From NCBI GenBank assembly GCA_000004695.1, contig CM000151.3, forward strand, positions 5,472,001 through 5,536,000: a stretch of 64,000 nt of DNA. The letters are read 5' to 3'. This document shows, piece by piece, positions 1 to 60,013 of the stretch. Numbering within the stretch: position 1 is the stretch's first letter; each line of letters opens with the position of its first letter. The DNA comes from Dictyostelium discoideum (Eukaryota). A program made the translations under genes and the position numbers. The notes beneath the pieces are model-generated. The model saw only the letters and a program-made list of their open reading frames with translations, was not told where the DNA came from and did not search any database.

Positions 1-1595
1 CTATTATTATTATTATTATTATTATTAATTGTACTTGATAAATTATTATTATTATTTGGGTTATTATTATTTGGGCTATTATTATTTGGATTATTATTAT
101 TTGGATTATTTTTATTAAATCTTAAATTTAAAATTCTTTGATTATAGATATCTGAATATCTTTTTAAAGGTTCAGTAAATTCACTATAGTAAGGAAAGTG
201 TTGATATTTCTCTTTTTTAATTTTAAATGATTCCAAATTTCCTGAAACTTGATTTAAAATATAATTTAAAAAAAGTTCTTCATTAGTATTACAATTAATA
301 CTAAGATTTTGATTTGATTTGAATGATTGAACCAATTTAAATAGATCAGTTTCTTTAAATAAATTTGATTGAACTAAACTATTTGAAACTTTATAAATTA
401 AACCTTCGATTCCCCATTCAGCCAATGTACAAGTAACAATGAAATTTGCCAACATTAATACCTCTTGAATTAAATTTGATACTGATTCATTTGGTAATTG
501 AGGTTGTTTAACTTTAATTGGAACATTTAAGATTGTATTAAATTCAAAAGATACAAATTGATTATTTGAATTTATAATTAAATTTTTTGAAAGGACATGA
601 TTCTTGAATACCAATAAACTAGTTTCAATATCAGATTGTTGAAATTTACTATCTTGGTCAATTTCAAGTTTATCATCGATTGGTAAACCTTTAAAAATAT
701 TTTGAACTTGTGAATAAGAAAGATTAGTCGTTGATTTAATAATTGACTTATGGATACGTCTTGAAACTGATTCACCAATATGATTTAAACCACCAAAACT
801 CCATTCAACTGTAAAACATTTTCTTTCTTTACCAGGTGACAATGATAAGTTTTGAGTAATAAATTCTTGATCAATGATATCAACTCTATCAATACCACCA
901 AAATCAATTGAAATACCATTCATACAAGCAATTTTATCCAATGTTGATCCAATTTCAATAAAACTTGTGCAATCAAGAAAATGAACAAAAATTGTAACTT
1001 TACCATCCAAACTCTTTTTAAATGAAAATGCATATGAAATATTATTATTATTATCCTGTTCAATTGTAAAACATAATAAATCTCTTAAATCTTCATAATC
1101 TTCATTATTATCAAAAAAAACAATTGATTTATTTGATAATGAATTTATAATTGTATTGGTTGCTGTATTAGTTGAAGTAGTGGTTGTTGTAGTTGTAGTA
1201 GTAGTAGTGGTGGTGGTGGTGGTGTTTGTTGTGGTAGCTGTTGATAAATTTGAAATTGGCGATAAATTATTTTCAATTTTTATAATTGAAAGTTCTTTTA
1301 AAAACTCATTCGAAATTGCCCAATGATTATTAATTGTACCAATTGGAAATAAAGTTGATGATGACCAAATTGATTCTAATTTAATTTCATAAATGATATT
1401 ACCATTTAACAATGGTAATTTTAAAAGCTGATTATTATCAAATATTAAAACCATTATACATGCGAGTTTACAGTTTGTTGGTTCAAAGAAAAGGAATTGA
1501 TCTTTTCTTTTTAAAAATTTACAACAATAAATTTCTTTGTGTTGACTTTTAATAATTGATATAACTTTACATTCAATTAATTTATTATTATTAGT

Positions 1596-1666
<71 letters not shown>

Positions 1667-3025
1667 GATTATTATTATTATCATTAATTTGTTGATTATT
1701 ATTAATTATTTGATCATTTTGATTTAAATTTTGAGTTCTTTTAATGGTTTCTTTAAAAACTTTATCAAAAATAACTTCATCATGTTGTTGTTGTTGATTA
1801 TTTGTTAAAATTTCAACTGCAACTATATCACCATGAAAGGAACGATTTCTATTAAAATAACCAGTTATATTAAAAATTTTATCTTGAAAATATAAATAAT
1901 TTGGTTTAATGGTTGCATTATTTGGATTATTTTTTTTTATATTAATTTCCCCAACTATAATATTTTTCTTCTATTTAAAAAAAAAAAAATAAAAATAAAG
2001 TCAATAAAAATTTAAAAATTAAAATTTTTAAAAAATAATAAAAAGGTGATAATTACAATTAATGAATTATTAATTTCAAATTCAGAATAATGTTCGAGAT
2101 AATAATTATTATTATTTGAAATTGTTAAAGGTAATAGTGAATTTGAAATTGATACTTGTGAAAGAGATGAAGAATAAGATGATGATGAAGAACAAGTTGA
2201 AGAAGGTGGTGATAACTGTTGATGGCAATTTCCATTGTTACCAAAGAATTTATTATTTTGATTACTATTGAGCGAAGGTGATGATAATCCAAAATTTGGT
2301 TTCTTTGATTTGTTTCTTTCAACCTTTCTATGATCTAATTCAGAGTGTGCAAATGCACACCATCTACCTTTTTTACATGCTTGATTGTTTACATAATCTT
2401 TACAAAATTTAGTTTTATATACCAGTGGATGATACATTACTTCAACATCATTATGAGAGAATCCACACTTTTTTTAAAAAATAAAAAAAAAATAAATAAA
2501 AAAAAAGATTAAAATTTTATTCTTCATATGTTATTTATATTATATAAAAAAATATATAAATTATAATTACATTTTCATTATTGCAAAGAGTTTGACAAAG
2601 ATTATTTGAATAAAGTAGTTTTCCATCGCTATCATATGGTGGTCTTCTACGTTCATCTCTTTTGTGATAAAAGAAACTAATTGGGAAAAAAAAAAAAAAA
2701 AAAAAAAAAAAGTTTAAGCAAAATTCCAAAAATTAAAAAAAAAATAATAAAAAAAAATAAAAAAATATAAGTTTTAATTACCAATCTCTATCTTTTGAGC
2801 ATTTAATAATCCCCAATCTACATTCTTGGGTTTTATAACTATTGATATACTTTGAGTGACATTCTTCAGGTGACATCAATTTAAATGGTTTATTATTGTT
2901 ATTATTTTTATTATTATTATAATTATTAGTGGTAGTATTATTATTATTGTTGTTATTGTCGTTGTTATTGTTGATATTATTTGTATTATTATTAATATTT
3001 GGGATATTAGTGGTAATTTTAAATT

Positions 3026-3029
<4 letters not shown>
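1..3029 (-). CDS. CCCH zinc-finger / DIS3L2-like RNB exoribonuclease. Four exons: 3029..2782, 2676..2571, 2464..2057, 1960..<1. 3' end runs off the window.
   Basis: ATG at 3029..3027 preceded by poly-A. Exon 1 ends ...CSKDRD + tg|GTAATT, phase 2. Exon 2 (AG|t ttc...) completes the Cys codon; exon 3 follows GTAATT...AG. Three CCCH fingers are rebuilt across the splice junctions: C-x6-C-x5-C-x3-H, C-x3-C-x4-C-x3-H, and C-x8-C-x5-C-x3-H (VYKTKFCKDYVNNQACKKGRWCAFAHS, TIS11-like). Exon 4 starts after a 96 bp intron with KKNIIVGEINIKK...RSFHGDIVAVEIL (Dis3 cold-shock-domain signature), then poly-Q, then FFEPTNCKLACIMV. RNB motifs follow: IQEVLMLANFIV (EEFMLLAN-like) and YQHF...TEPLKRYSDI (HFTSPIRRY-like). 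No stop codon before position 1. Confidence 0.7.
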
Positions 3030-3067
<38 letters not shown>

Positions 3068-3542
3068 TACATATAAATATGAATAAAATCAATGAATAGT
3101 ATTTAAAAACTATTTCAATGGTTTATTTCCAAAGAAAAAAATAATAATAATAATAAAAAAGTTTTTTATTTATTAAAAAAAAAAAAATTATTAAAAAATT
3201 AAAAAAAAAAAAATTAATATTTTAGAAAAATTTAATTATTTAAAAAATAATTTAATTTTTACCAATCTAAGTAATTGTTAAAACAATAAAAAACAATTAT
3301 TATCCCAAAAAAGAACCAATTATTAAAAAAAAATAAAAAAATAAAAAATAAATTTATTTTTCATTTTTTTTACGATAAATTGATTAATTCTTCTAATTTT
3401 CAACAATCGATAAATTAAATATTTAAATCAATTTCCATATTTAATCAATTTAAAAATAAAATAAATAAAAAATTTTATTAAAATATAAAAAAAAATAAAA
3501 TAAAATTAAAAAAAAAAAAAAAAAAAAATCGTTTTTTGGTGG

Positions 3543-3577
<35 letters not shown>

Positions 3578-3783
3578 ATAATTGAAACTTTCATACCAAT
3601 CGACAAAAAAAGATATTTTTATAATATAATTTATATATATTATATTATATTTTTATTTTGTTTTTTTTTTTTTTTATTTAAATTTATTTTAAAATTTTAA
3701 AAACAATTATTACATAAAAAGAAAATATAATAAATAAATAAATAAATAAATAAATAAAATAAATAAATAAAATAAATTTAATA

Positions 3784-4722
3784 ATGCGTGTATTTTTATT
3801 TAAAATTGCAAGTAAACAAAGATGGACACTTTATATTGAAAAATCTGAATTCTTCTCAAAGAAAGTTGATATCGAACCTACAATTGTAACAACATCAAGT
3901 AATAATAATAATATAACATTACCAACTCAATCTAAAGGAGTTTTAATATTAAATAAATTAAAGAATATAGCAATTGAATCAAAGAATGAAATTGATAACG
4001 CTCAAGATGGTGTTGGATTAAAAGGGAAATTAAAATCATTATTATCATATTTAGAATCTAAAATCCATCCAGAAGAAGCAGTATTACAACAATTTTCAAA
4101 AATTAATGATAATAATTTAATTAAAAAACATAATCATCATAACCATCATAATCATATTCATCATAATAATAATAATAATAATAATCAAAATGAAACTGTA
4201 AAACACCAATTTGAACATTTTAATGAACAAAGAGATAAAGCTAGTTTTACAATATATTATCCATCAAATATTGGATATAGACGTGCTAATAGATTCTCAC
4301 AAGTATTAATGAGACAAAAGATACGATTCCATCAAAAATGGATGATAATCAATAGTTTATTAATTCCAATTACATTTGCTGCCACAATTTTACCAGGCCC
4401 AAACATTTTCTTAGCCTATAATCTTTATAGATTATATGGTCATTTCCAAGCATTAAAAGGTTGTACCAATCTATCAAGATACACTAAATCACATGGTAGA
4501 TTATTATTTAAACCAAGTTTAGAAATGTTTGAATGTTTAGATGGTGAATTACTACAACAACAACAACAATTTAAACAACAACAACAACAACAACAACAAC
4601 AGCAAGAAGAAGAAGAACAATCAATCGATAATCCAAACTCATATGAAAAATTATCCACAAGATTAAGAATACCAGGTTTATTTGATTATGTAAAAAGAAT
4701 TGAAACTATTGAAAACAAATAA
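3784..4722 (+). CDS. Hypothetical membrane protein with H/N-rich and Q-rich tracts. Hydrophobic segment followed by PGPN...YRLYGHFQALKG, reminiscent of the mitochondrial K+/H+ exchange-related (Ydl183c-like) family.
   Basis: Intact 312-aa ORF. ATG in a poly-A context. Dictyostelium codon bias. One predicted transmembrane stretch, WMIINSLLIPITFAATILPGPNIF. Confidence 0.55.
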   Translation: MRVFLFKIASKQRWTLYIEKSEFFSKKVDIEPTIVTTSSNNNNITLPTQSKGVLILNKLKNIAIESKNEIDNAQDGVGLKGKLKSLLSYLESKIHPEEAVLQQFSKINDNNLIKKHNHHNHHNHIHHNNNNNNNQNETVKHQFEHFNEQRDKASFTIYYPSNIGYRRANRFSQVLMRQKIRFHQKWMIINSLLIPITFAATILPGPNIFLAYNLYRLYGHFQALKGCTNLSRYTKSHGRLLFKPSLEMFECLDGELLQQQQQFKQQQQQQQQQQEEEEQSIDNPNSYEKLSTRLRIPGLFDYVKRIETIENK

Positions 4723-5020
4723 ATAAAAAATAAAATAAAAAAAGTAAAGAATATATAAATTTAAAAATAAATAATAGTTATTATACGATGTATTTTTTTT
4801 TTTTTTTTTTTTTTTTATTATAATTATTCCTAATAATTTTAATCCTTTTTTTTTTCACTTTTTTTTTATTTATTTTTTTTATTGTTTGTTTTAATTTATG
4901 ATATGTTATTACATTGTTATCGAAGTATGTTGGTGGTAATAATATTTTTGAAACGATATCATATGATTTTATTATTATTATTATTATTATTAAATGTTTG
5001 TAATTGATTTTAATTTTTGT

Positions 5021-5302
5021 TTATTTTTTGTATTGTCTGAATCTTTCATCTAAATCTGATTTTCTTTTTTCTTTAATTTTTTGGATATTATCCATTACAT
5101 ATTCTGGTGGATTATTGAATATATCTGTTTCACATCTCCAAGTTTCTGACATTGGAAGTGATGTCCAATATCTAATTGTTGCACCATTTGAAAGGATACA
5201 TCTAGTGAGTTTGGATCTTGGTGAATGCTTTTTAAAATTGGAAATTGATCTAGTGATGTTTCCACTAATATTTTGATTAAATAAACGTATACAACTATTC
5301 AT
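5021..5302 (-). CDS. Small hypothetical protein (93 aa).
   Basis: ORF with A-rich 5' context and plausible codon usage. No recognisable domain. Could be an exon of a larger gene. Confidence 0.35.
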   Translation of the reverse strand: MNSCIRLFNQNISGNITRSISNFKKHSPRSKLTRCILSNGATIRYWTSLPMSETWRCETDIFNNPPEYVMDNIQKIKEKRKSDLDERFRQYKK

Positions 5303-5337
5303 TTCTTTTTTTTAATTGAATATGTAATAAAAAATAA

Positions 5338-5368
<31 letters not shown>

Positions 5369-5526
5369 TCGAAAAAACTAAAAATGAAAAATAAAAAATG
5401 AAAAATAAAAAAAAATAAAATAAAAAAAAAAATATATTGTTTAAAAATTTGGTCATTTCTGACGAAAATTATTTTAATAATAAAAATGGGAACTAAAACA
5501 AATATAAAATTCTTTTATTTTGGTTT

Positions 5527-5566
<40 letters not shown>

Positions 5567-5741
5567 GTACAGATTTTATTTATAAATGGTTAATTAACCT
5601 TTTTTTTTTTTTTTTCATGAAAGGAAATTAAATTCCAAAAATAACTTTATTCTTTCTTTCTATCCTTTTCATTTGTGTCTTTTTTTTTTTTTACTATTTC
5701 TTAATTAAAAAAATTTAAATTTAATTGATAATTTATTGACC

Positions 5742-11234: not shown

Positions 11235-16130
<4,896 letters not shown>

Positions 16131-17683: not shown

Positions 17684-17764
17684 TGTTGGCGGCGAGATTC
17701 GAACTCGCGAAGCCGAAGCATAAGAACTTGAGTCTTACCCATTTGACCACTCTGGTACGCCAAC
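17684..17764 (-). tRNA. tRNA-Leu(CAA), class II with a long variable arm.
   Basis: Minus-strand read: GTTGGCG TA CCAGAGTGGTCAAATGGG TAAGA CTCAAGT TCTTA TGCTTCGGCTTC GCGAG TTCGAAT CTCGC CGCCAAC A. The 7-bp acceptor stem pairs perfectly. Anticodon loop is cuCAAgu. T-arm is GCGAG/CTCGC with a TTCGAAT loop. No encoded CCA. Confidence 0.85.
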
Positions 17765-20550: not shown

Positions 20551-20631
20551 GGTAAAGTACCAGAGTGGTCAAATGGGTAAGACTCAAGTTCTTATGCTTC
20601 GGCTTCGCGAGTTCGAATCTCGCCTTTATCA
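20551..20631 (+). tRNA. tRNA-Leu(CAA)-like. The body is identical to the 17684-17764 gene but the acceptor stem differs (GGTAAAG/CTTTATC, with one G-U pair).
   Basis: GGTAAAG TA CCAGAGTGGTCAAATGGG TAAGA CTCAAGT TCTTA TGCTTCGGCTTC GCGAG TTCGAAT CTCGC CTTTATC A. It folds as a cloverleaf. D, anticodon, variable and T arms are identical between the two copies. Confidence 0.6.
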
Positions 20632-21094: not shown

Positions 21095-22702
21095 ATGAGT
21101 GATAGTAGCGAATTTTTAGAAAAACATCAACAAGATATATTAAATCAATTAAATAATCTCAAAGAGAAAATCGAAAATTTAGAAAATAAAATGGAAACCA
21201 TTGAAGATACTCAAGTTCAACAACCAACCGAAGAAATCACACAAATTAAAGATGATATTATTGTAGTCGATGATGCTCAAAAAACAATTGAACAAGAAGA
21301 AATTAAAAAAGAAGAACCTGAAAATGATGAATCATCAGAAGAAATTACTCAACAACAACAACAAGTAGAAGAACAAGAAGAAGTTAAGCAAGAAGAGCCA
21401 GTTGTTGAACAACAACAAAAAGAAGATGAAATTAAACAAGAAGAACCAATTGTTGAAGAACCAATTGTTGAGGAACCAATTGTTGAGCAACAACAAGAAG
21501 AGGAAGTTAAACAAGAAGAACCAATTGTTGAAGAACCAATCGTTGAGGAACCAATTGTTGAACAACAAGTAGAAGAAATTAAACAAGACGAACCAATTGT
21601 TAAAGAACCAATTGTTGAACAACAAGAAGAAAAAGAAGAAGAAGAAGTAAAACAAACACAAGAAGAAACTACAACTGTTACAGAATCAGTTGTGGTCACT
21701 GAAACTGTTATTACTGAAGAAGAGAAAAATGAAACTACTATTACTACTGCTACTACCACTACCACCACTACCGAACAACCAACTATTGAACAACAACAAC
21801 AAGAAGAGGAAGAATCAAGACCAGTTATTGAATCTGAACCAATTGTTGTTGTTGAAGCAACTGAACAACCAACAGTTGAAGAAGAATCCGATGAAGAAGA
21901 TAAAAAAGAAACTAATGAAAATGATAAATCATCATCCAATGATAATAATAATAATAATAACGATAAACAAGAAGAACAAAAAGAACAAACAAATGGTAAA
22001 AATGAAAAAGATGAAGAAGAAGAAAAAGAAAAAGATAATAAAAAAGATAAAGAAGAAGAAGAAGTTGAAAAAGAGGATGAAAATATATTATCACAAGCAG
22101 AATTAGCAAACTTTTATAAACTTGAAGGTAATGAATACTTTAAACATAATATTTACTTTGATGCAATCGAAAGTTATTCAAAAGCCATTTCAATTAAACC
22201 ATCACATCTCTTGTATAGTAATAGATCAATTTCATATTATAAATTTGGATTATTTGCTGAATCACTTCAAGATGCATTGGAATCAATTAAATTGGAAGCT
22301 AATTGGGTTAAAGGTTATCATAGAGCTGGTCAAGCTTTAGAAAAATTAAATCAAAAAGATGAAGCCATCAAATATTATGAAAAAGGTCTTTTAATTGAAC
22401 CAGATCATCAACCAATGAGAGATGCTTTAGATAGTATTTTAAATGTTGGTAAAGAAGATCAAAAAGGTGAAAATACTTCCTCTGATAGTGAATCAGATAG
22501 TGAATCAGATAGTGAAGAAGAAAGTGAATCTGATTCAGAATCTGATTCAGACTCTGACGACTCTGACGATGATGATGATAACACTTCAAATCAAAATAAA
22601 TCTATCGTACCATATGGACCTGTTGCTAAAGTGGCAATTGCAACTTCAATTGTTGGTGCAATTGCTCTTGGTTTCTATCTTATAACTAAATTAAAAAAAT
22701 AA
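21095..22702 (+). CDS. Tail-anchored TPR-repeat protein. It has an acidic EEPIVEEPIVE repeat region, three TPR motifs, a D/S/E acidic tract and a C-terminal transmembrane anchor. The architecture resembles plant-type Tom20 or FKBP8/Tom34.
   Basis: Single 535-aa ORF. TPR region: AELANFYKLEGNEYFKHNIYFDAIESYSKAISIKPSHLLYSNRSISYYKFGLFAESLQDALESIKLEANWVKGYHRAGQALEKLNQKDEAIKYYEKGLLIEP. C-terminus: VAKVAIATSIVGAIALGFYLITKLKK*. Confidence 0.7.
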   Translation: MSDSSEFLEKHQQDILNQLNNLKEKIENLENKMETIEDTQVQQPTEEITQIKDDIIVVDDAQKTIEQEEIKKEEPENDESSEEITQQQQQVEEQEEVKQEEPVVEQQQKEDEIKQEEPIVEEPIVEEPIVEQQQEEEVKQEEPIVEEPIVEEPIVEQQVEEIKQDEPIVKEPIVEQQEEKEEEEVKQTQEETTTVTESVVVTETVITEEEKNETTITTATTTTTTTEQPTIEQQQQEEEESRPVIESEPIVVVEATEQPTVEEESDEEDKKETNENDKSSSNDNNNNNNDKQEEQKEQTNGKNEKDEEEEKEKDNKKDKEEEEVEKEDENILSQAELANFYKLEGNEYFKHNIYFDAIESYSKAISIKPSHLLYSNRSISYYKFGLFAESLQDALESIKLEANWVKGYHRAGQALEKLNQKDEAIKYYEKGLLIEPDHQPMRDALDSILNVGKEDQKGENTSSDSESDSESDSEEESESDSESDSDSDDSDDDDDNTSNQNKSIVPYGPVAKVAIATSIVGAIALGFYLITKLKK

Positions 22703-23059: not shown

Positions 23060-27588
<4,529 letters not shown>

Positions 27589-34677: not shown

Positions 34678-37600
34678 ATGGAAATAGATAATAATGAATT
34701 TGAAATTTCATTTTGGAAAGTTATTCATAATAAATATTTATTCGATAGAATAATTAATTATATTCAATGTTTAGAATGGGTTAATTATGATGATTACAAC
34801 CAATTACATATCGAAAATAGAATAAAATTTAAAAATATTAATTCCCTAAAATGGATGATAAATAATAATCAATTAGAATTATTAAAATATAAAATTAAAA
34901 TAAATGATGAATTTATCAAAATTACTGAAAATTCATTAAAATTATTATTTTCTAATTTTGGTTTTCAAACATCGGCAACCGATGAAAAATTAAATGAAAT
35001 TTTAATTTTTTTATTAAAATATAGAAAAAGAGAATTAGTACCATTCGATTTAGTTGATATTGGTATTAAATGTTTAAATTTAAATGTTATTAAATTTTTA
35101 ACTTCTGAACCTTACTCTTTTCAAATATTTCAATCATCTTTGGAATGGGTAGTAATAAATTCAAATTCTTTATTTTTAAATGAATTATCAAATTTATCAG
35201 ATACAATTTCTCAAACAATTAAAATAATTTCTGAAAGAAATGAAAATGAAAAAAAAATATTAGATTCTATAAATCAAAGTGAATCTAATAAAAAATTTCA
35301 AATTTCAAATTCATCATTATCATCAACAATAACAACAACATTAGATTCTAAATCACCTTTCTCATTTGGTTCATCATTTGGTTCATCAACATCACCAATA
35401 CCACCAAATCCAACAAATACACTTATACAACCAACACCGTCACCACTAGCTTCTAATAGTTCCTCTCCTATATCAACAACCTTTAAACCAACATCATTTG
35501 GGTTTTCTACACAATCACAACCACAACCACAACCACAACCACAACCACAATCACAATCACAATCACAACCACAACCACAATCACAACCAACCCATAGCGC
35601 AACGCCGACAATAGCACCATTTGGCTTATCCTCGCAACCAACACCAACACCAGGTTCTTATAGTTCTCTTCCTGGATCAACAACAACAACAACCTTTAGA
35701 CCAACTTCATTTGGTTTTTCTTTAATTTCACCACAACCAACACCAATATCTGCACCAATTGGTTTTTCAACACAAGCACTATCACAACCAACACCAACAA
35801 GTGCACCAATTAGTTTTTCAGCGCAATCACAACCACAACAACCACAATCACAATCACAATCACAATCACAATCACAATCACAACCACAATCACAATCACA
35901 ACCACAATCACAATCACAACCACAATCACAATCACAACCAACACCAACAAGTGCACCAATTGGTTTTTCTACACAATCACAACCACAGCCACAATTACAA
36001 TCACAATCGCAATCACAATTTGGTAGTTTTAAAGCTGAAAAAGTTATTATAAACCCAAAATTTATTTCAACTTTTTCTCAAGGTTCATTTAGTAATAATA
36101 ATTTTAATAATAATAATATTGACCAATTTATAGAATTAAGTGAAATACTTAGATCATATGATTTAGAGCGTTTTAAAAATTATTTATTAGAAAATAAATC
36201 AAATATGGATAATATTATAATTAAAGTTAATAATCATAAGAAAATGATGGGAGAAAAGTTGGGAAATAATATTGATAGATTTTGTGAATTTATGAAATTT
36301 TATACATCAAATATATCATTTAATAATATGGATTTTGATAGACTCATTCAAAATTATATATTTTCAACATCAACAAATCAAGATGAATTTAATAAAAATA
36401 TTGAAAAAACAATTTCATCAAGTAATACAAGATTATTAAATCTTTTACCAAGTAAATGGAATCAATTACTATTTGATACTTTTAATTTTTGTTTAGATCC
36501 AATTGGAAAAACTTATTTTTCAATTGATAAAAAAGAAACTATAGATTGGATTTTTGAAAATTTAAAAAATCAATATTTTATTCAAAATTTAATTCAATCA
36601 AAACAAGTTGGATTTCTTGATTTCTCATCACTTGAAATAATTAATTATGCAAAAAATAAATTTAATCAAGTTAGTGCTGATATAAATTCAACAACAACAA
36701 CAGCAACAATAAAACCAATCAATAATTTAAATGAATTTTTTACAAATTCAGAAAAAGAATTATCATTTATTTACAGATATTCATTTTTTAAATCAATTGG
36801 TGATTGTAATTTTGACCAATTACAATTTATAACATCATTAAAAATGAATCCAATTGAATGTTATCGTGAAAATAGTAGTAATAAGAATGGTAGTGTTTGT
36901 GGTAGTGATGTAAGAAATGAAAAATTTTTAAAAAGTAATTTAAAGAAACAATCAACTGAAAATTTAATTAAATTAATTGAAATATTAAATAATTGTGATT
37001 ATAAAATCTTTTCATCAGAATTATTTTTTAAATTTCTTTCAATAATTGGTAATCATTGTGAAAATAGTGAATTGCTTTTATCAAAAATTCAATTTTCATT
37101 TACCAATTTAGATAAACATTTTGAACAATATTCTTTAAATATCTTTATGGATTCATTGTTAAATAATATTAATATTATTAAATTATTTTTTAGAAATGAT
37201 TTTAATCCACTTAAATATTTAAATCAAATTAAAAGAAATGGAACGACAGTAATACCATCAAATTTTATTTTCAGTATTGACCATTACCAACCAGAATCAT
37301 ATAATAATAATCATAATAATATTTTAGTTGGTATTTTAAATCAATCAACAACTGAATCATTTGAAATGATAATTGAAATAATTAAACTTTTATTAAATAA
37401 TTTTCAAATTGATATTAAAGTTCATAAACAAAAAGTTGGAATTCAACAACAAAAATCATTAGATGAGCAAGATCCTTTACAAAGAGATATGAAAATGGTA
37501 ATTCCACATTCATTATTAACCAATTTTAATCAATATTTCATTTCATTAGAAATGATTATAAATTATTTATTTAAAAAATTAATTCAAATTAAAGGTTTAC

Positions 37601-39084
37601 CAATTAACAGATTAGAATATATTTATAAAATAATTAAAAATACAAGTGTTGAAAATTTTTCAATAGTTTTAGATCATTCAATTTTTCATTCAATTTATTA
37701 TTTAGCAATTAAATCACCAAAATTAGTTAAATATATAATGTAATTCCCATATTTATCAGATATTCTAATTGAAGCTCAATTTGATAAATTTAATGACTCT
37801 TGTCTTTTTTCAAGAATTGATAGTTGTTATAATATTGTAAAATATTTAGATCCAAAAATATATAATTTTAATTTTATTTTTGGTGAATTATTACCACAAG
37901 AAAAAGAAGAAAAAGAAGGTGAAAATATTGAAAATTTAATTTTAAAATTAATTTTAGAATTATCACATCAACCAGTTATAATGAGTGATAAATCATTATC
38001 AAATAATTATTATACAACAGGTTTAAATTATAATTTACAATTTTATTTAGATATACATAGAATTGGTTTATTTTTTAAACAACTAGATTTTATTCAATCA
38101 TTATTAGATGATGAAAATTTTAAATTTGGTGATTTTCCAAATGGAATTGTTAAAAACCTTAAAATTAAAAATATTGGTACTTGTGATTCAATTGAATGTT
38201 GTCAACAACAACAACAACAAAATGATAATCATTTAAAACCATTATTAAATAATAGATGTTTTCATTATAAAGATTTAACAATTCAAAAAGCTTCAAAAGT
38301 AATGAACTCTCAACAATTTTTTAAATTTATTAAATTTTGTAATTATCATTCAATATTTTCATTTTTATTAATCTACAACGATGATCTTTTAGAATTTGAA
38401 ACAATTAATCAATTATTAAATCAATCATCAATAATTAATCATTTATTAATTAATCATTATGAACCAAATCAAGATATTGATTATCAAGAAGAATTTGAAA
38501 ATCAAGATGAAATTAAAAATCAAGATGAAATTGAAAATCAAGACGAAATTGAAAATCAAGACGAAATTGAAAGTCAAGACGAAATTGAAAATCAAGACGA
38601 AATTGAAAGTCAAGATGAAATTAATGATAAAGATAAAGTAGAGCCGAGTGAAAAAGATGATAATTCAGATGTTTCAGAATTTTGGTTAGATTTAATTGAT
38701 TATTGTGTATATGATTGTGAAAAGATTGAATTTTTATTTATCAAACATCCAAATTTATTATCCTTTATTCCAATTGATAAAATTTTAGATAGAGTTTTAC
38801 AACCAGGTACAAATTACAATTATAATATAGTTTTAACAGATTTAATAGTAAATCATATTAATAATAATAATAATAATCAAGATAACCCAATCAATTGTAA
38901 AGACATTTTACCATTCTTTAAAATTACAAACCGAATAATTGATGATGCAATTGTTGCAAAAAAAATTTATTATTTAAAATACATTTACGAAAATGGTTTT
39001 ATTGAAGAAAATGAACTTTTGCAATATTTAAAAGATAAACTTGCAAATAATTCAGATTATAAAAATCTAAATTGGTTTAATTAA
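34678..39084 (+). CDS. Large hypothetical protein with PQ/SQ dipeptide repeats, FG-type motifs (TSFGFS, APIGFS, QFGSF) and a C-terminal acidic NQDEIE hexapeptide repeat. Proposed two exons: 34678..37739, 37815..39084.
   Basis: ORFs 34678..37743 and 37981..39084 share one frame. The 237 bp between them has no stop other than the single TAA at 37741. That TAA lies inside a candidate 75 bp intron, at|GTAATTccc...ttgtcttttttcaAG|a, and removing it fuses the two ORFs in frame. Confidence 0.5.
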
Positions 39085-41433: not shown

Positions 41434-44287
41434 TTAAATTACATTTGATTCAAAAGATTCCAATTCTTTTGCTTTTTGTTTTGCATTTTCAATAACTTGT
41501 GAAGGGAAATTTGCTAAAATTGCAACATGAATACCAAAACTTTGATCACAAGGACCTTGTTCAACTTTATAGAGTAAAGTAAAAGTATTGTTTTGGGTTG
41601 AAGCTGAAACATGTAAATTTTTAACCATTGGAAGTAAATCTGATAGAATTGTCAATTCATGGAAATGAGTTGCAAATAGACAGAAACCACCAATTTGATT
41701 ACAAATATACTCTGCAATACCCCAAGCTAAACCAAAACCATCATATGTTGAAGTACCTCTACCAAGTTCATCAATAATGATTAAAGAATTTTTAGTTGCA
41801 ACCTTTAAAATGTAAGATGTCTCTAACATTTCTGCCATAAATGTTGAAACACCACGTAATTGACTATCACCTGCACCAACTCTTGATAAAATACAATCGA
41901 CAACTGCAATTGTTGCTTTTTGTGCTGGTACAAAACAACCAATTTGTGCCATTAATACTATTAATCCAACTTGACGAATAAATGTTGATTTACCACCCAT
42001 ATTTGGTCCTAAAATAATAAATAAAAAATGTTAATTTAAATTTATTGTATGAATTAATTATATATATATTTGTTTGTTTTTACCTGTTATAATTTGAAAT
42101 TGGGATTGACCACGAGTTAAATCAATATCATTTGCAATGAAATTAACATTATCTTGAATTTCTACACATGGATGACGACCACCAATAATAACAGTGCCAG
42201 CACCATTTTCATCACTACCTAATGGTATAATCTCTGGTCTAATGAATGGGATTGGTGCAATTGAAGATACATGACTTAAAGTTACAAATACATCCAATGT
42301 TGCAATTAATGATGATAAATCTTCAATCAAAGGTACGAATGAAGCTGCAATTTGAAGGGTTCTCTTTGCAAGACCATCTTGTTTATCCAAGTACTCTGCT
42401 GACCATTTCTTATAGGCTTCATTTAGAGTATCGATTTCTCTAGTGGCAAATCTTACACCATCTTTAGCGGTTGCATGAACAATGTATTTCTTTTTATCTC
42501 TAATTGCAACCTCATCCTTTCTTGAGATTCTCAATAAAAACATATCCTTTTCACTATAATGTAATTTAACTTTTGCTTCATCTAAATTCAAATCATCAGC
42601 AATGTCAACTCTAAATCGTTCGATTTTATTTGAAATTTGATCTTTCTTCAATTGAATACCACGTAATGTCTCATCGAAACTTGATCTAATAACATATTCA
42701 TGTTTGTCATTGGCCAAATCTAAATCGATGGTTTTTTCAACCATTGCACAGAATTTAGCAAAATCTGATATAATAGACTCTAAACTCTCTATGAAATTAA
42801 CTTTAATCAACTCTTGATGTATACTACTATGATTATTCAATGATTGCAATACCACTGGTAATCTAGTGACAATACCATACAAATTGACACAATCCTCCAA
42901 TGTAGCCTTTTGACCATGCAATTTCTTTGATAATCTATCTAAATCACCAATTTTCTTCAAATCATTTGATCTTAAAGATTGACGTAACTCCAAATCATTA
43001 TAAAATGCCTCTACAAAATTTAATCTTGCTTCGATTTCCTCTGCATTTAATAATGGTTGCTTTACCCATTGTAATAATAATCTTGATCCCATTGGTGTAT
43101 TACATTGATTTAATAAATTATATAAACTTTGATCTTTATTTGAACTAGATGATGCTCCACCTGCACCACCACCACCTGCTGCTGCACTAACTGAAGAATC
43201 TTTTAAATCAATAATATGTAAACCTTTAAATGATGAAGAATCTAATTTCATATATCTATCTAAATCATATTTTTCCAATTTGAATTTACCAAAATAATTT
43301 GGATTTGAAAGTAAATCCAAATGTTTAATTAAGCAACTAGCAGACTGAATGGCATGCTCTTGTTCGATATCTGGTAAATTATTTTTAACGGAACCCAATA
43401 AACGAGTTAAATCTTGTTCGGCATTCTTTGAGGAGAAATCTGATTTTGGTAATTCTGTGAATGGTATACCTGCATCTGATAATTTCTCTTTAACTTTTTG
43501 ATAATCATAATTCTTTTGATCACAACATAACAAGCATTCCTTTACACTCATTTGCATTATAAAACTTGAAAGATTCGATAGATTATCATTATCCATAAAT
43601 TGTGAAACACCAATTGTCTTGAAAGTAGCATCACCAAATGATATACCAAATACGATTGAACCTTTCTCTCTTGTGACTTTTAATGCCATCATAACTGATC
43701 CTTCACAATTACCATTCAATAAAACATCTTCAAACATTTGTGTATTACCTGGTGAGCCTTTTTTAATTAGTTCCCATTGTTGTTTACTATTTGGTTTCAT
43801 TGACCAAATTTCAATCTTTTTCTTTTCATCTAATAATTCTTTAACTATATTTTCAAATTCATAACCTTGTCTAATTGTTAATACCGCTAATCCTAATTCT
43901 TGTTGTTGTTGTTGGGATGATGATGCAGTTGTTGTTAATGAACCATCATTATCAATTTTAATTTTCTTTTTTGGATTTGGATCACTAATACTCCAATATT
44001 TTAATGATTTCTTTGATTTAAAATGCATCATTGCTACAAATACTGCATCTTCACCATGAATTGAGTAATATCCCTATGGTTTTTTTTTTTTTTTTTTTTT
44101 TTTTTATTAATAAGTGTTAAAATATATAAAATGAATAAAAAAATATTTATATAATTACTTTTCTATCAAATAATCTAATTGTGTCTGTATCTTCATTAGA
44201 GGATACTAAACTTTGAAAAAATGTAACAAAGGTTTTATCCTCCTTTAATACTACTTGTGATGATTCTTCTTGTTCATTATCTGACAT
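41434..44287 (-). CDS. msh2: DNA mismatch repair protein MSH2 (MutS homolog 2). Three exons: 44287..44159, 44073..42084, 42008..41434.
   Basis: Exon 1 is MSDNEQ...IRLFDRK|GTAATT. Exon 2 after ccatAG reads [18 protein letters not shown]... (compare human RGDFYTAHGEDALLAA) and runs through the connector, lever and clamp regions. It ends ...QFQIIT + g|GTAAAAAC (75 bp intron). Exon 3 reads [29 protein letters not shown]...[23 protein letters not shown]...FATHFHELT, the Walker A and MutS ATPase signature, nearly identical to human MSH2. Confidence 0.9.
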
Positions 44288-46281: not shown

Positions 46282-47439
46282 ATGGAAAATAATAATGATT
46301 ATAAAAATAGGTCAACAGAAATTTTTAACGAAGCAGATGCAGGATTTGTATATCAATCCAACTCAAATGATTATTCAGATGGATTTGAAGGACCAGAAAA
46401 GAAATTAGATATTAGATTCGGTCCAATTAGTAAAGGTAGCGTTAAATCAATTGCAGGTAGCCCAAGTAAGGTTGGATTACGTACAATTGATAAGGAGAAA
46501 TGGCAAACAGTATTAGATTCAGCAAGATGTACAATCATTAGTCAAACCAGTAATGATCATATGGATAGCTATGTTTTATCAGAATCAAGTTTATTCGTTT
46601 ATCCACGTCGTGCAATGATTAAAACCTGTGGTACCACCACTTTGTTACACTTGATCGCTAAAATGGTTCAAGTAGGTAAAGAATGTGGTCTTGAAGTTGA
46701 GATGGTTGTTTTCTCTAGAAAGAATTTAAATCAACCATCCAAACAAGTCTTTCCACATTGTTCATTCTCTGATGAAGTAAACTTTCTCAACAAGATTTTC
46801 GATGGTCAAGCCTATGTTATGGGTGACGTCAACAAGGACCACTGGAATTTGTATATCGCCGATTTCAGAAAGAATCCAACCCTCCAAAGAACTGAACAAA
46901 CCTTTGAGGTTATGATGCACGATCTCGATGAAACTGTTATGAAACAATTTTTCAAGCGTGAAGGTGTATCAGCTTGGGATACAACCGTCAACAGTGGTAT
47001 TGCCGACCTTTTGCCAGGTTCAATGATTGATGATTTCCAATTTGATCCTTGTGGTTACTCAATGAATGGTCTTCTCAATGAATTTTATTGGACTATTCAT
47101 ATCACACCAGAATCACATTGTAGCTATGTATCATTTGACACCAATGTAGCTCTCGCAGATTACAATCAATTGTTGGCAAAGGTTTTAAATGTTTTCAAAC
47201 CAGGTCGTTTCACAGCTGCACTCTATGCCGAAGATGGTGCTCCATGTGGAGATCCTTACACTGCTTTCGATGTCAATGTCCCTTCCTATGCAATTCAAAA
47301 TAAAACTGTACATGGTTTTGATGGTGGTTATGATGTTGTTGTTTCAAATTATCAACAATTGGATAAAAAAGTGAATTTTTCAAATGATGATTTAATTCAA
47401 TCAATCGAATCAACTAATATTGATTTAATTCAAGTTTAA
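46282..47439 (+). CDS. amd1: S-adenosylmethionine decarboxylase proenzyme (AdoMetDC).
   Basis: Single 385-aa ORF. FEGPEKKLDI (FEGxEKLLE motif). The pyruvoyl-forming cleavage site YVLSESSLFV. TCGTT, PCGYSMNG, YWTIHITPES and SYVSFDTN all align with human AMD1. Confidence 0.9.
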   Translation: MENNNDYKNRSTEIFNEADAGFVYQSNSNDYSDGFEGPEKKLDIRFGPISKGSVKSIAGSPSKVGLRTIDKEKWQTVLDSARCTIISQTSNDHMDSYVLSESSLFVYPRRAMIKTCGTTTLLHLIAKMVQVGKECGLEVEMVVFSRKNLNQPSKQVFPHCSFSDEVNFLNKIFDGQAYVMGDVNKDHWNLYIADFRKNPTLQRTEQTFEVMMHDLDETVMKQFFKREGVSAWDTTVNSGIADLLPGSMIDDFQFDPCGYSMNGLLNEFYWTIHITPESHCSYVSFDTNVALADYNQLLAKVLNVFKPGRFTAALYAEDGAPCGDPYTAFDVNVPSYAIQNKTVHGFDGGYDVVVSNYQQLDKKVNFSNDDLIQSIESTNIDLIQV

Positions 47440-50218: not shown

Positions 50219-50923
50219 ATGATGGAGAAAATGGATAAATATGATACAATTCTTTGGCGATTAAGAGAATTGGAAGAAAATTCAAAATGTGCTGATTGTA
50301 CTGATAGTGTAAGTTCAAATTTAAAAATTAAATTAAAAAACAATAATAATTTTATTAACTTTTTTTTTTATTTTATTTTTTATTTTTTTTATTGTTATCA
50401 AAGTTTCCAAGATATATGAATACAACATATGGAACATTTGTTTGCTCGGTATGTGGTGCAATTCATAGAGAATTGGGAAATAGAGTAAAATCAATATCAT
50501 CTGATAAATTTACCCAACAAGATATTGAAAGACTTGAAAAAGTTGGTAACAAAATGGCTGATGAAATTTGGTTATCAAAATGGAGTCAACAACAGTATCC
50601 ACTACCATTCCCAAGTGATGAAAAGAGGGTTAGAGATTTCATTAAAATGAAATACATTGAAAAGAAATGGATTAAAGAAGGTATTAAACAATCTGATTTC
50701 ATTTCACCACCAACTCAATCAACACCTGGTTCAACTCCAACTTTCACTTCTCCAAAGCAACAACAACAACAACAACCATCAGCAGTATCTCAAAAACAAC
50801 AAACTACATCACCATTAAGAAATAGTGGTGAGAAAAAAGAAATACTCACTTCAAAAGATTCTTTATCAAAAGAGTTTGAAAGTTTATCATTAGGAAATTC
50901 AAATAATTTATTAAATACTAATC

Positions 50924-50967
<44 letters not shown>

Positions 50968-51310
50968 CCTTCAACTCAAACATCTCAACAATCAATTCCA
51001 TTCATTCAACAAGCTGAAATTAATCAACAACAGCAACAGCAACAGCAACAATTTGATTCAAATGGTAAACCATTCAATCCTTTTAGAGATGAAAATAAAT
51101 ATTTTAATTCAAAACCACAACCAATTGAAAGTAAAGCATCATTCCCACCATTTTCAGAGAAACCATTTAATCAACATTCCTATTTAAATGAAAAAAGTAC
51201 AATGAATGCTGATCAAAGTCTTGGTAATAATTCTTCATTTTATTCTAAAATTCAAGTTCAACATCCAACCCCAAAATCACCACCAACCTCAATCTATGAT
51301 ACTCAACAAT

Positions 51311-51354
<44 letters not shown>

Positions 51355-52753
51355 AAACCACAACAATATCAAAATCAACAACAACATCAACAAAAATTAC
51401 AACCACAGCAACAATCACAATACCAACAACAACAACAACAACAACCACCACCACCATATATAAATCAACAGCCACAATACAACCAAACAAATAGTCAAAT
51501 GAATCAAATGAATGGTCATGCAAACCAAATGAACAACCAAATGAATCAAATGAATAACCAAATGAATCAAATGGGTAATAGTATAATGGATGGTAACCAA
51601 ATGGTGAATAATTTCCAACAACAGCAACAACAACCACAACAATATAATCCATTTATTGATACTAATTTAAGCAATAATCAATTGGCATTAGTTCCAGTTG
51701 AACAAAATAATAATAGTAATAATAATAATAATCAAATGGCAGTGTATCCTCAACAACCACCACAACCACAACAACATAATATGAATTTCCAACAACAACA
51801 TCAACAATATCAACCACAACAGCAACCACAACAACAAAATTTATCAAATATTAATATGAATAATAGCAATAGTAATATTCCAAATGGAAATCCATTTGGA
51901 ATTTCAGATCAAGTTGTTTTAAAACATCAACAAATGCATCAACAAAATATGAATCAACAAAATATGCAACAACCACAAATGATGATGAATTCAAATGGTC
52001 AAATGGTAATGGTTACTGGTGGTCCTGCTACCACTACAACTACAACAATTATACATACTCCAATTAATGGAAATTTACCATCAGAGTCATCATCATCATC
52101 TGGTAATCCATTTGATCAACAACAACAACAACAACAACAACCATTAGATGAAATGTTTGGTAAAAAGGTTAATAGTGATCCTGTATTCCCTGCTTCAAGT
52201 TCATCATTTGAAAGTGGTAATAGCTTAGATAGATCTGATGAGGAACAAAAAGAAGCATGGAGAAGAATTCAAGAAAAGAATATTCAAATCCAAAATGATA
52301 AAGAAATTGCAAGAAAATTACAATTGGAAGAAGAAGAAATCTTTAAAACTAGACCAAGAAGTAATACTGAACCCTCACCACGTGATAGAACTACTTCACA
52401 ATTACAGCTTCAACAATCTCAACCTCAACCTCAACAACAACAATATCATTACTCATCTTATAGTTCATCATATGATACAGCAAATAATCATGGTAATGGT
52501 ATGCCAATAACTCAGCAACATATTGTAAGTGGACATCATCGTTCAAGTAGTGGTAGTAATATTCTAAAACGTCTTAGTGGTAGATCTAGAAGTAAATCAT
52601 ATGATTATGATGATCCATTTGAAATCAATCCAAGACCTTTGAATAAAAGTGGTGGTTATGATGATTATGACAGTTTTATGAGAAAAAATAAACGTATCCC
52701 AGGTGGAGGTAGTAATTATCAACCAAAAATTAGTCAACAAGATTATTATCAAG

Positions 52754-52788
<35 letters not shown>

Positions 52789-53118
52789 TATCAACAACAA
52801 CCATCATCACAACAAATTGTTGTTCATGAACAAAGTAACTATAATAATAATAATAATAATAACAATGCAAACAGATCATATAATGAATGTGATTATTGTG
52901 GTAAAGATGTTGGTTTAGAATCGATGAGTTACCATAAGAATACTGAATGTATTCTTAGACAAGAAAGATGTTCCATGTGTAATAAATTGGTAAAACATAT
53001 GCAAATGGGTGACCATCAATTACAATGTCAAACAAATACTTACACATGTGGTGTTTGTGGTAGATTAGTAATGGGAAAAGAAATGCAAAATCATATGGCA
53101 TATGTTCATAATCAATAA
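50219..53118 (+). CDS. ArfGAP-domain protein with a long Q/N/P-rich low-complexity middle and three C-terminal TRAF-type C2HC zinc fingers. Two exons: 50219..50308, 50404..53118.
   Basis: Exon 1 is MMEKMDKYDTILWRLRELEENSKCADCTDS|GTAAGT. Acceptor is atcaaAG (50402-50403). Exon 2 reads FPRYMNTTYGTFVCSVCGAIHRELGNRVKSISSDKFTQQDIERLEKVGN, completing the ArfGAP C4 zinc finger CxxC-x16-CxxC. C-terminal fingers are CDYCGKDV...H....C, CSMCNKLV...H...C and CGVCGRLV...H.....H. A UIM/MIU-like helix (EEQKEAWRRIQEKNIQIQNDKEIARKLQLEEEE) is also present. The ORF-track M at 50392 is TTG, not ATG. Confidence 0.8.
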
Positions 53119-54798: not shown

Positions 54799-56811
54799 TC
54801 ATAAATTTTTTCTATTTGACGTTGAACTTAAAAAACTACTATTATTGTTACTGTTATTATTATTATTATTATTAATATTAATATTATTCCTAGTAGTATC
54901 ATCAGAATTTATAACAGATTCTTCTTGTATAACTTTCCAAAATGATAATAAATTTGGAGCTAATTGAGGATGATTATATTTTTGAGATTGATGTTTTAAT
55001 TGATGGGATTGTTGTTTTTGTTGTTGATAAGTTGGAATAAATTGATTATCATTATTATTTTGATTATTATTATTTTGATTATTTTGATTATTATTTAAAC
55101 TTGAATTCAAAGTTAAATCATCTTCAATTATAGAAGTATCATCATTTGTTGATTCATTTGTTGTTAATAAATTATTTGAAAGTATTTTTTGTTGTGATAA
55201 TTGAGTATTTTGTTGATTTTTAATTAATTGATATTGAAGTTCTTGTAATTTTTCAATTTGAAGATGTTGTTGTTGAATTTGTTGTTGTAACTCTACAATG
55301 TATTGATTTGAAAGTTGTTGTTGAAATTGTTGTTGTGCTTGTTGAAATTGTTGAATTTTATTAACTTTTTGAATTTTTTTATTTTGTTGATCAATTTTAA
55401 TTTGTTCATTAAAATCAATATCTTTATGATATTGAATATTGTTAGCTTTAGATGAGTCATTTGTTGAATTAAAAATATTGCTATTTGAAGTATTGGTGGT
55501 GTTGGTGGTATTGGTGTTGGTATTAAATAAGGATTGTTGTTGTTCTTTTAAGATTTGTTGTGATTGTTCTTTTAAAATTAAATTATCACGTAATGGGTTA
55601 ATGAAAGAGTCATTTCTAAAACCTAAACCCAATGCTAAATGAGCAGGTGTTTTCTTTGTATAAGGTAAAATATTTTTAACATGACAATAGTATTTCAAAC
55701 CAATAAAAGTTAAACCACCAATACATGCAATTGAGCCACAAGCAATTGGGAATGCCAATGGGTGTTGCTCAAATCCTGAAATGAGATTCATACCAAATGT
55801 ACCGGCTATAACACTACCAAGACCTGTTGAAATGGTCACTAAACTTAACATAAGATTCATTCTCATCATTTTATTTCTTGCAGTATCCAATTGAAAATTT
55901 ACGAATTCCTCAGTTGAATTTAATGTTTCCTTAAGTTGTGAAATATTACTCGATAGTAATTCCAATTGTCTTGTGTATGTTTCCAAGAGGATTTCAATTT
56001 CATCGTGTTGATTCTTTTTTCTTGCACCACCAGTTGCATGACGAAATGAAAGATACATCAATGCCATATCCTCATCGGCCTCCAATAGATCGGTGATTGC
56101 GTCTATGATCTCCTTTATTTTAACTTCAAATTGATTGAGACCTTTTTTATGATACAACAATAGTTCCTCTAAATTATGTTCAGGATTCTCATTTAACATT
56201 TGCAATTCCTTCTCTATCAATGATTGCATTCTTCTAAATTCAAATTCTAATTTTCTACAAATTAAATCCAATATAGATTCAAATACTTTAAATTCAAATG
56301 GTAATGGTAAGTATTCTGTACCTTGTGATGTTAATGATTCATGAATACCAATGGCAGTTTCATCCTTTATTTGAGTGTTTCCTGTATCGAATAGCAATAC
56401 TCTATTATATTGCACAATGGCCCTAACACAACCAATACTAATTAATATAACTTTATCTCTAACTAAAATCGTTGGCATTTGTGGTGGAAATGATGGATCG
56501 ATCGTACGTAAATCACGAGCTTGTAATTTTAATTCATTCGATAAACTACCCTTATAAAATCTTTCCTCTGATCTATTACCATTTATATCAATCGTTAAAA
56601 CATTTAATGATTTTAATCCATCCGTTGTGAAACTACTTGGATTTTGATTATTATTTTGTGATGATGATGATGATGATGATGGTTTTGAAAATGATTCTTC
56701 ATCAAATATTTTACTAATTGTTGATGTTGTTGATACAATTTTCTCATTCTTTTGTTTATTAATTATATCAATATTATCTTTACCAATTGTACCAATATTT
56801 TTATTTTCTAA

Positions 56812-56883
<72 letters not shown>

Positions 56884-59975: not shown

Positions 59976-60013
<38 letters not shown>

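Follow-up and report, generated by a model that had tools for sequence, protein, structure and literature searches.

A dictyostelid gene joining an Unkempt-type CCCH zinc-finger cluster to a Dis3L2-like RNB domain with a degenerate active site and a UPF1-like helicase

Introduction

Does the gene at the beginning of a 64,000-nucleotide (nt) stretch of Dictyostelium discoideum DNA (GenBank assembly GCA_000004695.1, contig CM000151.3, positions 5,472,001 to 5,536,000 of the forward strand; hereafter the window) encode an exoribonuclease that selects its own targets, or a protein that has kept the shape of a nuclease and holds RNA without cutting it? An initial annotation, made from the letters alone, described CCCH zinc fingers fused to a Dis3L2-type body of cold-shock domain (CSD) and RNB domain and took the product for a 3'-5' exoribonuclease with built-in recognition of AU-rich elements. 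The fusion of fingers and body in a single polypeptide was borne out by the gene model, the Pfam RNB match and the fold matches reported here, whereas the name nuclease was not, since the third and fourth aspartates of RNB motif I, both of them Mg2+ ligands, are replaced by Ser-Tyr and the two positions are non-acidic in 7/7 dictyostelid species.

As reconstructed from genomic sequence, the 5' half of one gene with 8 exons and a product of 1700 amino acids (aa) is found here. The gene lies on the minus strand, and the window covers the first 911 residues; residues past 911, which lie outside the window, were analysed from another D. discoideum assembly (GCA_054883475.1). We propose that the three-finger cluster, the RNB domain (probably dead catalytically) and the UPF1-like helicase together form a sequence-specific RNA-binding regulator that does not cut its targets, a statement that we consider moderately likely when taken as a whole. 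"Targeted exoribonuclease" is a tempting mis-annotation for such an architecture, and it is corrected here.

Zinc-finger cluster

Three CCCH fingers lie in the N-terminal part of the protein. Finger 1 (2664..2822, minus strand as for all features of this gene; aa 70-87, C-x6-C-x5-C-x3-H) is interrupted by intron 1, finger 2 (2453..2597; aa 110-123, C-x3-C-x4-C-x3-H) is interrupted by intron 2, and finger 3 (2345..2404; aa 140-159, C-x8-C-x5-C-x3-H, with the lead-in YKTKF) is contained wholly in exon 3, so that the initial description of each finger as split by an intron does not extend to the third. None of the 12 zinc ligands is missing from any of the 7/7 dictyostelid species, although their spacing varies somewhat. 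As one unit, the three fingers match PDB entry 5elk (Unkempt ZnF4-6) with E=1.2e-9, query residues 15-115 pairing with chain residues 10-118, and in BLASTP the cluster also aligns with both three-finger clusters of an animal Unkempt protein. The finger order and the linkers (RRRxP and HP..YKT elements) are those of Unkempt, aligned as one unit. Unlike Unkempt, which has six fingers in two clusters, the dictyostelid protein has a single cluster; it also differs in a shorter finger 2 (C-x3/4-C-x4-C-x3-H), in the lack of a RING match (Pfam, full-length protein) and in the lack of a coiled-coil region. The finger assignment is made because of the 5elk match and the 12 conserved ligands, not because of the Pfam CCCH models, and on this basis the module is predicted to be an Unkempt-type three-finger cluster. 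In Unkempt itself, ZnF4-6 is the primary UAG-binding cluster (PMC11436793).

The initial annotation had called one finger TIS11-like and had suggested recognition of AU-rich elements. A TIS11/TTP tandem is a pair of C-x8-C-x5-C-x3-H fingers 18 residues apart, both of them preceded by (R/K)YKTEL. Such a tandem was considered for the dictyostelid cluster and rejected: fingers 1 and 2 are C-x6-C-x5 and C-x3-C-x4, only finger 3 fits, and TTP/TIS11-type chains were matched by finger 3 alone (E 4e-6 to 5e-4). The likeness of that one finger to a TTP finger therefore stands, but neither the tandem nor the recognition of AU-rich elements is indicated, as it is the whole unit that matches Unkempt ZnF4-6.

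Dis3L2-like body and degenerate RNB active site

Within the window, exon 4 encodes CSD1, a poly-Gln insert, CSD2, a poly-Thr linker, the RNB domain and a poly-Asn tail, in this order. An AlphaFold2 model of exon 4 (pLDDT 74.6, pTM 0.71) shows two β-barrels followed by an RNB fold, and Foldseek places the Dis3L2 structures of human, mouse and S. pombe at the top (E~1e-28 to 1e-27 over some 660 columns), ahead of Dis3, RNase R and Ssd1; RNase II was matched too. The best PDB sequence match of the body is likewise S. pombe Dis3L2 (E~1e-17). Cold-shock/OB barrel 1 (1791..1970; aa 256-315) contains NRNRSFHGDIVAVEIL at 1853-1806; its strands have pLDDT values of 85-94, it aligns to Dis3L2 CSD1, and its residues N297, R298, G302, D303 and V305 are invariant in the sequence alignment. 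Barrel 2 (1311..1583; aa ~385-475) is placed by the AlphaFold2 model and the Foldseek alignment to Dis3L2, and the Pfam model for Dis3L2 CSD2 has no significant match in the full-length protein. The RNB domain (126..1094; aa 548-870) is divergent. It scores 124-130 bits with Pfam RNB (126 bits, E=2.5e-36, for the in-window protein and 124 for the full sequence) against a cut-off of 29.3, which is about one third of the 329-354 bits of active Dis3L2 enzymes, a low score that would fit a relaxation of constraint once catalysis had been lost. Of the motifs quoted in the initial annotation, EVLMLANF has its counterpart in liEEfMlLAN of Dis3L2 and EFTEPLKRYSDI in hFTSPIRRYpDi, and FHGDIVAVEIL aligns with "NRAFHNDVVIVE" of S. 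pombe Dis3L2 CSD1 and is weak when taken alone (domain i-Evalue 7.1); the hidden Markov models uphold the RNB part of that annotation, with the CCCH models remaining at 17.8-21.8 bits, below the cut-off of 31.1.

Sequence and predicted fold agree in making Dis3L2 (PDB 4ro1/9cy7, 8e27-8e2a, 4pmw) the nearest relative of the CSD1-CSD2-RNB body, and the dictyostelid protein shares with it the absence of a PIN domain and recognisable RNB motifs II and IV. It differs from Dis3L2 in the added N-terminal CCCH fingers and C-terminal helicase and in the loss of three of the four catalytic aspartates. The C-terminal S1 domain of Dis3L2 (Pfam Dis3l2_C_term), which ordinary Dis3L2 proteins match, gave no match in the full-length protein or its orthologues, the corresponding region being aa ~925-1068. 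Motif IV (135..188) reads YSEFTEPLKRYSDIYNQR, in which T, P, Y, D and R of the canonical YTHFTSPIRRYPDxxVHR are retained; in D. purpureum a regular expression failed to locate the motif, a failure that carries no meaning. Parts of the RNA path may accordingly persist in the RNB domain. Amoebozoan Dis3L2 homologues keep the active-site signature (PMC8097288), and the dictyostelid gene is therefore of a separate lineage. The same study noted, and did not pursue, a separate amoebozoan branch of the RNase II family outside Dis3, Dis3L1, Dis3L2 and Dss1, termed "Amoebozoan RNII-like proteins (aRNIIL)" (Ballou et al. 2020, PMC8097288); the dictyostelid family may plausibly be aRNIIL.

Motif I (1023..1070), canonically DxxxxxDxDD, reads FTIEQDNNNNISYAFS. 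Its four aspartate positions, which the initial annotation had expected beyond the window, all lie inside it and read E559, N565, S567 and Y568 (1061-1059, 1043-1041, 1037-1035 and 1034-1032). DDDD is found at these positions in 139 of the 150 best-scoring library homologues, in contrast to ENSY, SDSN, HDPV, SEQT and VQSN in five members of the dictyostelid family; SY also occupies the third and fourth positions in D. citrinum and D. purpureum, and neither position is acidic in any of the 7/7 species. Mg2+ is bound by the first, third and fourth aspartates, without which various members of the RNase II family are inactive, as mutation has shown (PMC8097288). We conclude that the dictyostelid protein is very probably not an active RNB nuclease. 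Judged by these substitutions, its RNB domain would be a pseudonuclease, in which the fold and several RNA-contacting motifs are kept and the Mg2+-binding aspartates are lost.

The body is interrupted by two low-complexity inserts, a poly-Gln run encoded by pure (CAA)n at window 1596-1682 (aa ~360-388) between CSD1 and CSD2, and a poly-Thr run at window 1156-1276 ahead of the RNB domain. D. citrinum has a long poly-Asn run in place of poly-Gln, with the flanking domains kept; the inserts therefore turn over quickly.

UPF1-like helicase half

The C-terminal half matches Pfam AAA_11 at 59.8 bits (full-length protein), to which the orthologues add AAA_12 and a weak UPF1_1B match. Against PDB sequences it is closest to UPF1/Nam7 (E~2e-11), followed by ZNFX1 (5e-7), with the 1B region included in the alignment: "SWSKKKRKYVGAIELP…GDFICCIYLG" pairs with "KKRIAYFTLP…GDEICLRYKG" of UPF1, and a conserved motif of this 1B-like barrel is SWSKKK[KR]KYVG. 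The AAA_11/AAA_12 core, the 1B-like barrel, Walker A (GxxGxGK[TS], here GQPGSGKT) and motif Ia are shared with UPF1, ZNFX1, SMUBP2 and HELZ. The differences from these helicases are found in all species: motif II, VDNSHQEVEP in D. discoideum, which aligns unambiguously to "DESTQASEP" of UPF1, has DN for DE in 7/7, the Gln of motif III is absent, and motif V ("QGxE") is degenerate (QYYH, QYNQ, AYTR or RYSH). In superfamily 1 (SF1) helicases the Glu of motif II is the catalytic base that activates the hydrolytic water. A DE-to-AA double mutation is the standard ATPase-dead control (PMC10516660). The helicase therefore probably hydrolyses ATP poorly or not at all, and it may still bind nucleotide and RNA.

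The main rival to a non-cutting regulator concerns this half of the protein. It accepts the dead nuclease and supposes a live helicase, that is, an ATP-driven remodeller or translocase of ribonucleoproteins that would use the fingers and the RNB funnel as RNA-binding accessories. Walker A, motif Ia and a motif VI arginine, which most species retain, speak for it, as do the significant AAA_11 and AAA_12 matches and the conservation of the helicase half, where D. discoideum and D. citrinum are more alike (86% identity, aa 1065-1519) than in any other large block. Set against these are the DN of motif II at the position of the catalytic base and the changes in motifs III and V, and we regard a live helicase as unlikely.

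Proposed function and alternatives

In the regulator that we favour, the finger cluster would recognise a short motif in single-stranded RNA, further surfaces that hold RNA would come from the helicase core and the dead RNB/CSD funnel, and the helicase might serve as a nucleotide-dependent clamp. Bound transcripts would be regulated, through translation, storage, localisation or protection of the 3' end, and not degraded, a preference that we take from the analogy with Ssd1 (PMC8934651, PMC8097288). As to its origin, we suggest tentatively, at a level of confidence below that for the regulator itself, that an ancestral fusion of fingers, Dis3L2-like body and UPF1-like helicase lost both catalytic centres early in Dictyostelia and was kept by selection as a sequence-specific RNA clamp, possibly gated by nucleotide, or as a 3'-end binder.

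The gene structure, the domain homologies, the substitutions with their conservation and the purifying selection are shown by the sequences, and the loss of both activities, the binding of RNA and the regulation of bound transcripts are inferred. Several points weigh against this proposal. Pfam zf-CCCH_UNK matches the fingers at 17.3-28.4 bits, below its gathering cut-off of 31.1, with significant E-values. RNB motifs II (HxxD) and IV (FTEPLKRYSDxxNQR) are still recognisable, as would also be expected of an enzyme, and in D. discoideum E559 and the nearby D561 could in principle substitute for the lost aspartates; they are not conserved in the orthologues. The RNB domain of HELZ2 still cuts with one substituted aspartate, so that calls of inactivity made from sequence are fallible (PMC10516660). 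The effect of the Glu-to-Asn change in the helicase is drawn from general knowledge of SF1 and SF2 proteins and not from this family.

Some of these points would serve a second alternative, in which the protein is an active 3'-5' exoribonuclease of the Dis3L2 type and its own CCCH fingers guide it to AU-rich or other motifs. The strong RNB homology, the Dis3L2-like predicted fold and the partial conservation of RNB motifs II and IV agree with it, as does the example of HELZ2, an active RNB enzyme with CCCH fingers that tolerates one aspartate substitution. That tolerance is limited to Asn at the second aspartate in the human protein, and a D-to-N change at the third abolishes activity (PMC10516660), whereas in the dictyostelid family the first, third and fourth aspartates are replaced in 7/7 species with no acidic residue conserved there. 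Together with an RNB score at about one third of the enzymatic level and fingers of Unkempt type in place of a TIS11 tandem, this makes an active nuclease very improbable.

For a pseudonuclease acting as an RNA-binding regulator, a parallel is fungal Ssd1/Sts5 (PDB 7am1), in which an RNase II fold has likewise lost DxxxxxDxDD and remained under selection, presumably also as an RNA-binding regulator. Ssd1 has a blocked funnel and neither zinc fingers nor a helicase, the dictyostelid family does not belong to the fungal Ssd1/Dis3L2 clade, and Ssd1 is the closest relative neither by sequence (E=1.9e-07 vs 1e-17 for Dis3L2) nor by fold (E~2e-21, Foldseek rank 27). Since Ssd1 ranks so far below Dis3L2 and the family is confined to Dictyostelia, the gene is not an Ssd1 ortholog, and the best reading is that the dictyostelid pseudonuclease arose independently of Ssd1.

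To our knowledge, HELZ2 is the only well-described protein whose single chain unites CCCH-containing fingers with an RNB domain and with UPF1-like helicase cores, and in domain content it resembles the dictyostelid protein. The arrangements differ: in HELZ2 the fingers number six and alternate between C2H2 and CCCH, a helicase core stands on either side of the RNB domain, and RNase and ATPase activities have been demonstrated (PMC10516660), and in the dictyostelid protein there are three fingers of Unkempt type, a single helicase at the C-terminal end and degenerate signatures at both catalytic centres. No HELZ2-like protein was present among the best 150 RNB relatives. Kinship with HELZ2 by way of a weak OB_HELZ2 match was also considered and was dropped, as ordinary Dis3L2 proteins give the same weak match.

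RNase II-family pseudonucleases are so far fungal (Ssd1/Sts5). If the regulator and the origin proposed here are real, they would amount to a second, independent origin of such a pseudonuclease, outside the fungi, and the first paired with a pseudo-helicase; the family would show that the transition from enzyme to RNA binder was repeated in Amoebozoa, with the coupled helicase also losing its catalytic glutamate. Dictyostelium is genetically tractable, so that the role of a nuclease/helicase scaffold after the loss of catalysis could be tested directly, as could the question of whether a single Unkempt-type finger cluster suffices for target specificity.

Orthologues and selection

When exon 4 was run by HMMER exhaustively against 1.84 billion representatives, only four proteins scored above the level of ordinary Dis3L2: Polysphondylium violaceum KAF2075097, Cavenderia fasciculata DFA_03585, Acytostelium subglobosum XP_012751941 and Tieghemostelium lacteum KYQ93176. 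These distant orthologues are 1543-1772 aa long, and their database names go no further than "hypothetical" or "C3H1-type domain-containing". The finger, RNB, middle and helicase blocks are common to all four and occur in 0 of the other 146 proteins among the best 150 matches, in agreement with the initial impression of an unusual architecture; long RNB matches that were examined as possible helicase fusions were rejected as Dis3L2 proteins with long N-terminal extensions. The D. citrinum and D. purpureum loci were found by synteny from orthologues of the neighbouring gene (Mit_KHE1 domain). In P. violaceum (CYY_003613/CYY_003617) and C. fasciculata (DFA_03583/DFA_03585) the ortholog lies 2-4 locus tags from the Mit_KHE1 neighbour, a proximity that supports orthology. 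The orthologues span all four major dictyostelid groups. The initial annotation had proposed a search for orthologues in other Amoebozoa; seven dictyostelid species carry the fingers, no member outside the dictyostelids appeared in the search, and the family is by this search confined to Dictyostelia. It is a lineage-restricted family that databases list only as hypothetical proteins, and literature searches combining Dictyostelium with CCCH/RNB, Dis3L2, HELZ2 or Unkempt brought up no publication on the gene or its family.

Purifying selection acts on the gene. Between D. discoideum and D. citrinum the ratio of nonsynonymous to synonymous substitution rates (dN/dS, with dS about 0.25-0.32) is 0.04 for the fingers, 0.27 for the RNB domain, 0.35 for the segment after it and 0.36 overall; the value of 0.73 for the CSD region is inflated by misaligned poly-Q and poly-N runs and carries no meaning. 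The finger cluster, with 98% amino-acid identity between the two species, is the most constrained part of the protein. These values bear on a third alternative, that of a decaying gene or pseudogene in which the lost catalytic residues reflect loss of function. Degenerate RNB and helicase motifs and long poly-N, poly-Q and poly-T inserts could be read in that way, as could the absence of the protein from the protein collections searched (no exact match of the reconstructed 1700-aa protein was found there). That absence is uninformative: word-indexed searches, made with the protein stripped of low-complexity runs and with the RNB region by itself, gave one Unkempt protein as their sole relevant match and also missed a protein that is present in the collection. 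Given the dN/dS values of 0.04-0.36, the intact frame of 1700 codons across 7 introns and the preservation of the degenerate motifs, along with all zinc ligands, across Dictyostelia, a pseudogene is therefore excluded for practical purposes and is highly improbable.

Gene model and splice junctions

The minus-strand open reading frame (ORF) begins with the ATG at 3029, stays open for 911 codons in the window and runs off its left edge. In junction testing, the exon set 3029-2782, 2676-2571, 2467-2057 and 1970-1 was the only frame-preserving model near the junctions first annotated, of which the donors and the first acceptor (2676) were right and the other two acceptors, 2464 and 1960, were off by 3 and 10 nt from the true 2467 and 1970; taken literally, 2464 and 1960 lead to a frame shift and 32 stops.

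Exon 1 (2782..3029) encodes a poly-Asn N-terminus and the first two-thirds of finger 1 and ends in ...gattg|gt, a boundary that is identical in D. citrinum and D. purpureum. Intron 1 (2677..2781; 105 nt, GTAATT...TTAG, 10.5% guanine plus cytosine (GC), phase 2) cuts through the codon of Cys83 (tg|t), which provides finger 1 with its third Cys; in D. citrinum it is 115 nt long with 62% nucleotide identity. Exon 2 (2571..2676) supplies the end of finger 1 (CFFYH), the RRRPPYD linker and the first two Cys of finger 2. Intron 2 (2468..2570; 103 nt, GTAATT...AAAG, 5.8% GC, phase 0) falls between N118 and C119, directly before the third Cys of finger 2. Fingers 1 and 2 thus form only after splicing, and both the split Cys codon and the CNNEN|CGFSH junction had been correctly foreseen. 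Exon 3 (2057..2467) holds the end of finger 2 (CGFSH), the complete finger 3 and a Ser/Asn-rich linker, and is followed by intron 3 (1971..2056; 86 nt, GTAATT...ATAG, 8.1% GC, phase 0; 74 nt in D. citrinum and 70 nt in D. purpureum). The part of exon 4 in the window (1..1970) encodes aa 256-911 of 1700, and the exon continues 468 nt past the window edge. The three introns have 6-10% GC vs 22-29% in the exons, retention of any one of them brings in in-frame stop codons, and D. citrinum and D. purpureum have all three with position and phase unchanged but with diverged sequences and lengths (D. discoideum vs D. citrinum: 98% nucleotide identity in exon 2, 62-67% in the introns).

The corresponding locus of GCA_054883475.1 (L001, reached through the complete neighbouring gene; L001 coordinate = window coordinate + 6223) is annotated with one minus-strand product of 1700 aa that starts at the same ATG. 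If the three upstream introns are held constant, 1700 aa are reached by a single set of four additional canonical introns, with donors GTAAGT or GTATGT, which completes a gene of 8 exons and 7 introns; the annotated model may differ from this reconstruction in a junction.

Whether the fingers belong to this gene at all was the concern of the last alternative, which the initial annotation itself had raised: one gene for a small CCCH protein that terminates at 2012, and another for the RNB protein. The finger ORF does stop at 2012 if intron 3 is retained, but with intron 3 at the same place and phase in three species despite diverged sequence and length, no Met in the exon-4 frame before aa 428, which is past the first cold-shock barrel, a single annotated product of 1700 aa and orthologues in four other genera that are single polypeptides, two separate genes are scarcely credible.

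Two observations concern the downstream part of the gene in related species. An intron of 85 nt is required in D. discoideum between aa 1328 and 1329 (L001 4808-4894), and the matching D. citrinum region (L002 ~4235-5629) can be aligned without a change of frame (tblastn, aa 1065-1519), a sign that the sister species may differ in the presence of this intron. In D. purpureum, the annotation of the syntenic region has two products, of 1280 aa (L003 5103-9379, minus strand) and 481 aa (1671-3339, minus strand). By tblastn, aa 1-1698 of the target protein fall at L003 9358-3784 and so reach about 1.3 kb below the 3' end (5103) of the 1280-aa model, which looks truncated; the 481-aa gene has only low-complexity matches to the target protein.

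Neighbouring genes in the window

The window belongs to D. discoideum chromosome 2, of strain AX4 or one nearly identical to it. The divergent neighbour is DDB_G0275377, a Mit_KHE1-domain protein of 312 aa (ORF 3784-4719, plus strand, exact match). The intergenic region (3030..3783) of ~750 nt has 6-10% GC and is presumed to be a bidirectional promoter region. The target gene and the ortholog of DDB_G0275377 are adjacent in D. citrinum and D. purpureum and are not close in T. lacteum.

Other ORFs of the window match DDB_G0275569, DDB_G0275575 and part of Msh2 (DDB_G0275809), an exon of which lies at 42061-44031 on the minus strand. Further genes are those of a TPR protein (21095-22699, plus strand), an ArfGAP-domain protein (50392-53115, plus strand), an MRS2-like Mg2+ transporter (54802-57042, minus strand) and a Pro-kumamolisin activation domain, the N-terminus of a sedolisin-type peptidase (59426-60049, plus strand). 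Three long ORFs, 11967-16130 (minus), 23518-27588 (minus) and 34678-37740 (plus), of 1388, 1357 and 1021 aa, have no Pfam match at E<=1e-5. The S-adenosylmethionine decarboxylase ORF at 46282-47436 (plus strand, 385 aa) is an exact match to KAM9945624.1 of a newer strain annotation, and the AX4 model (XP_643401.2, Q8T1E3) has 379 aa, so that the public gene models differ. Two tRNA-Leu(CAA) genes, at 17684-17764 (minus strand) and 20551-20631 (plus strand), form an inverted pair ~2.8 kb apart; their arms are 94% complementary over 84 nt, and beyond the tRNA genes only A/T runs are similar.

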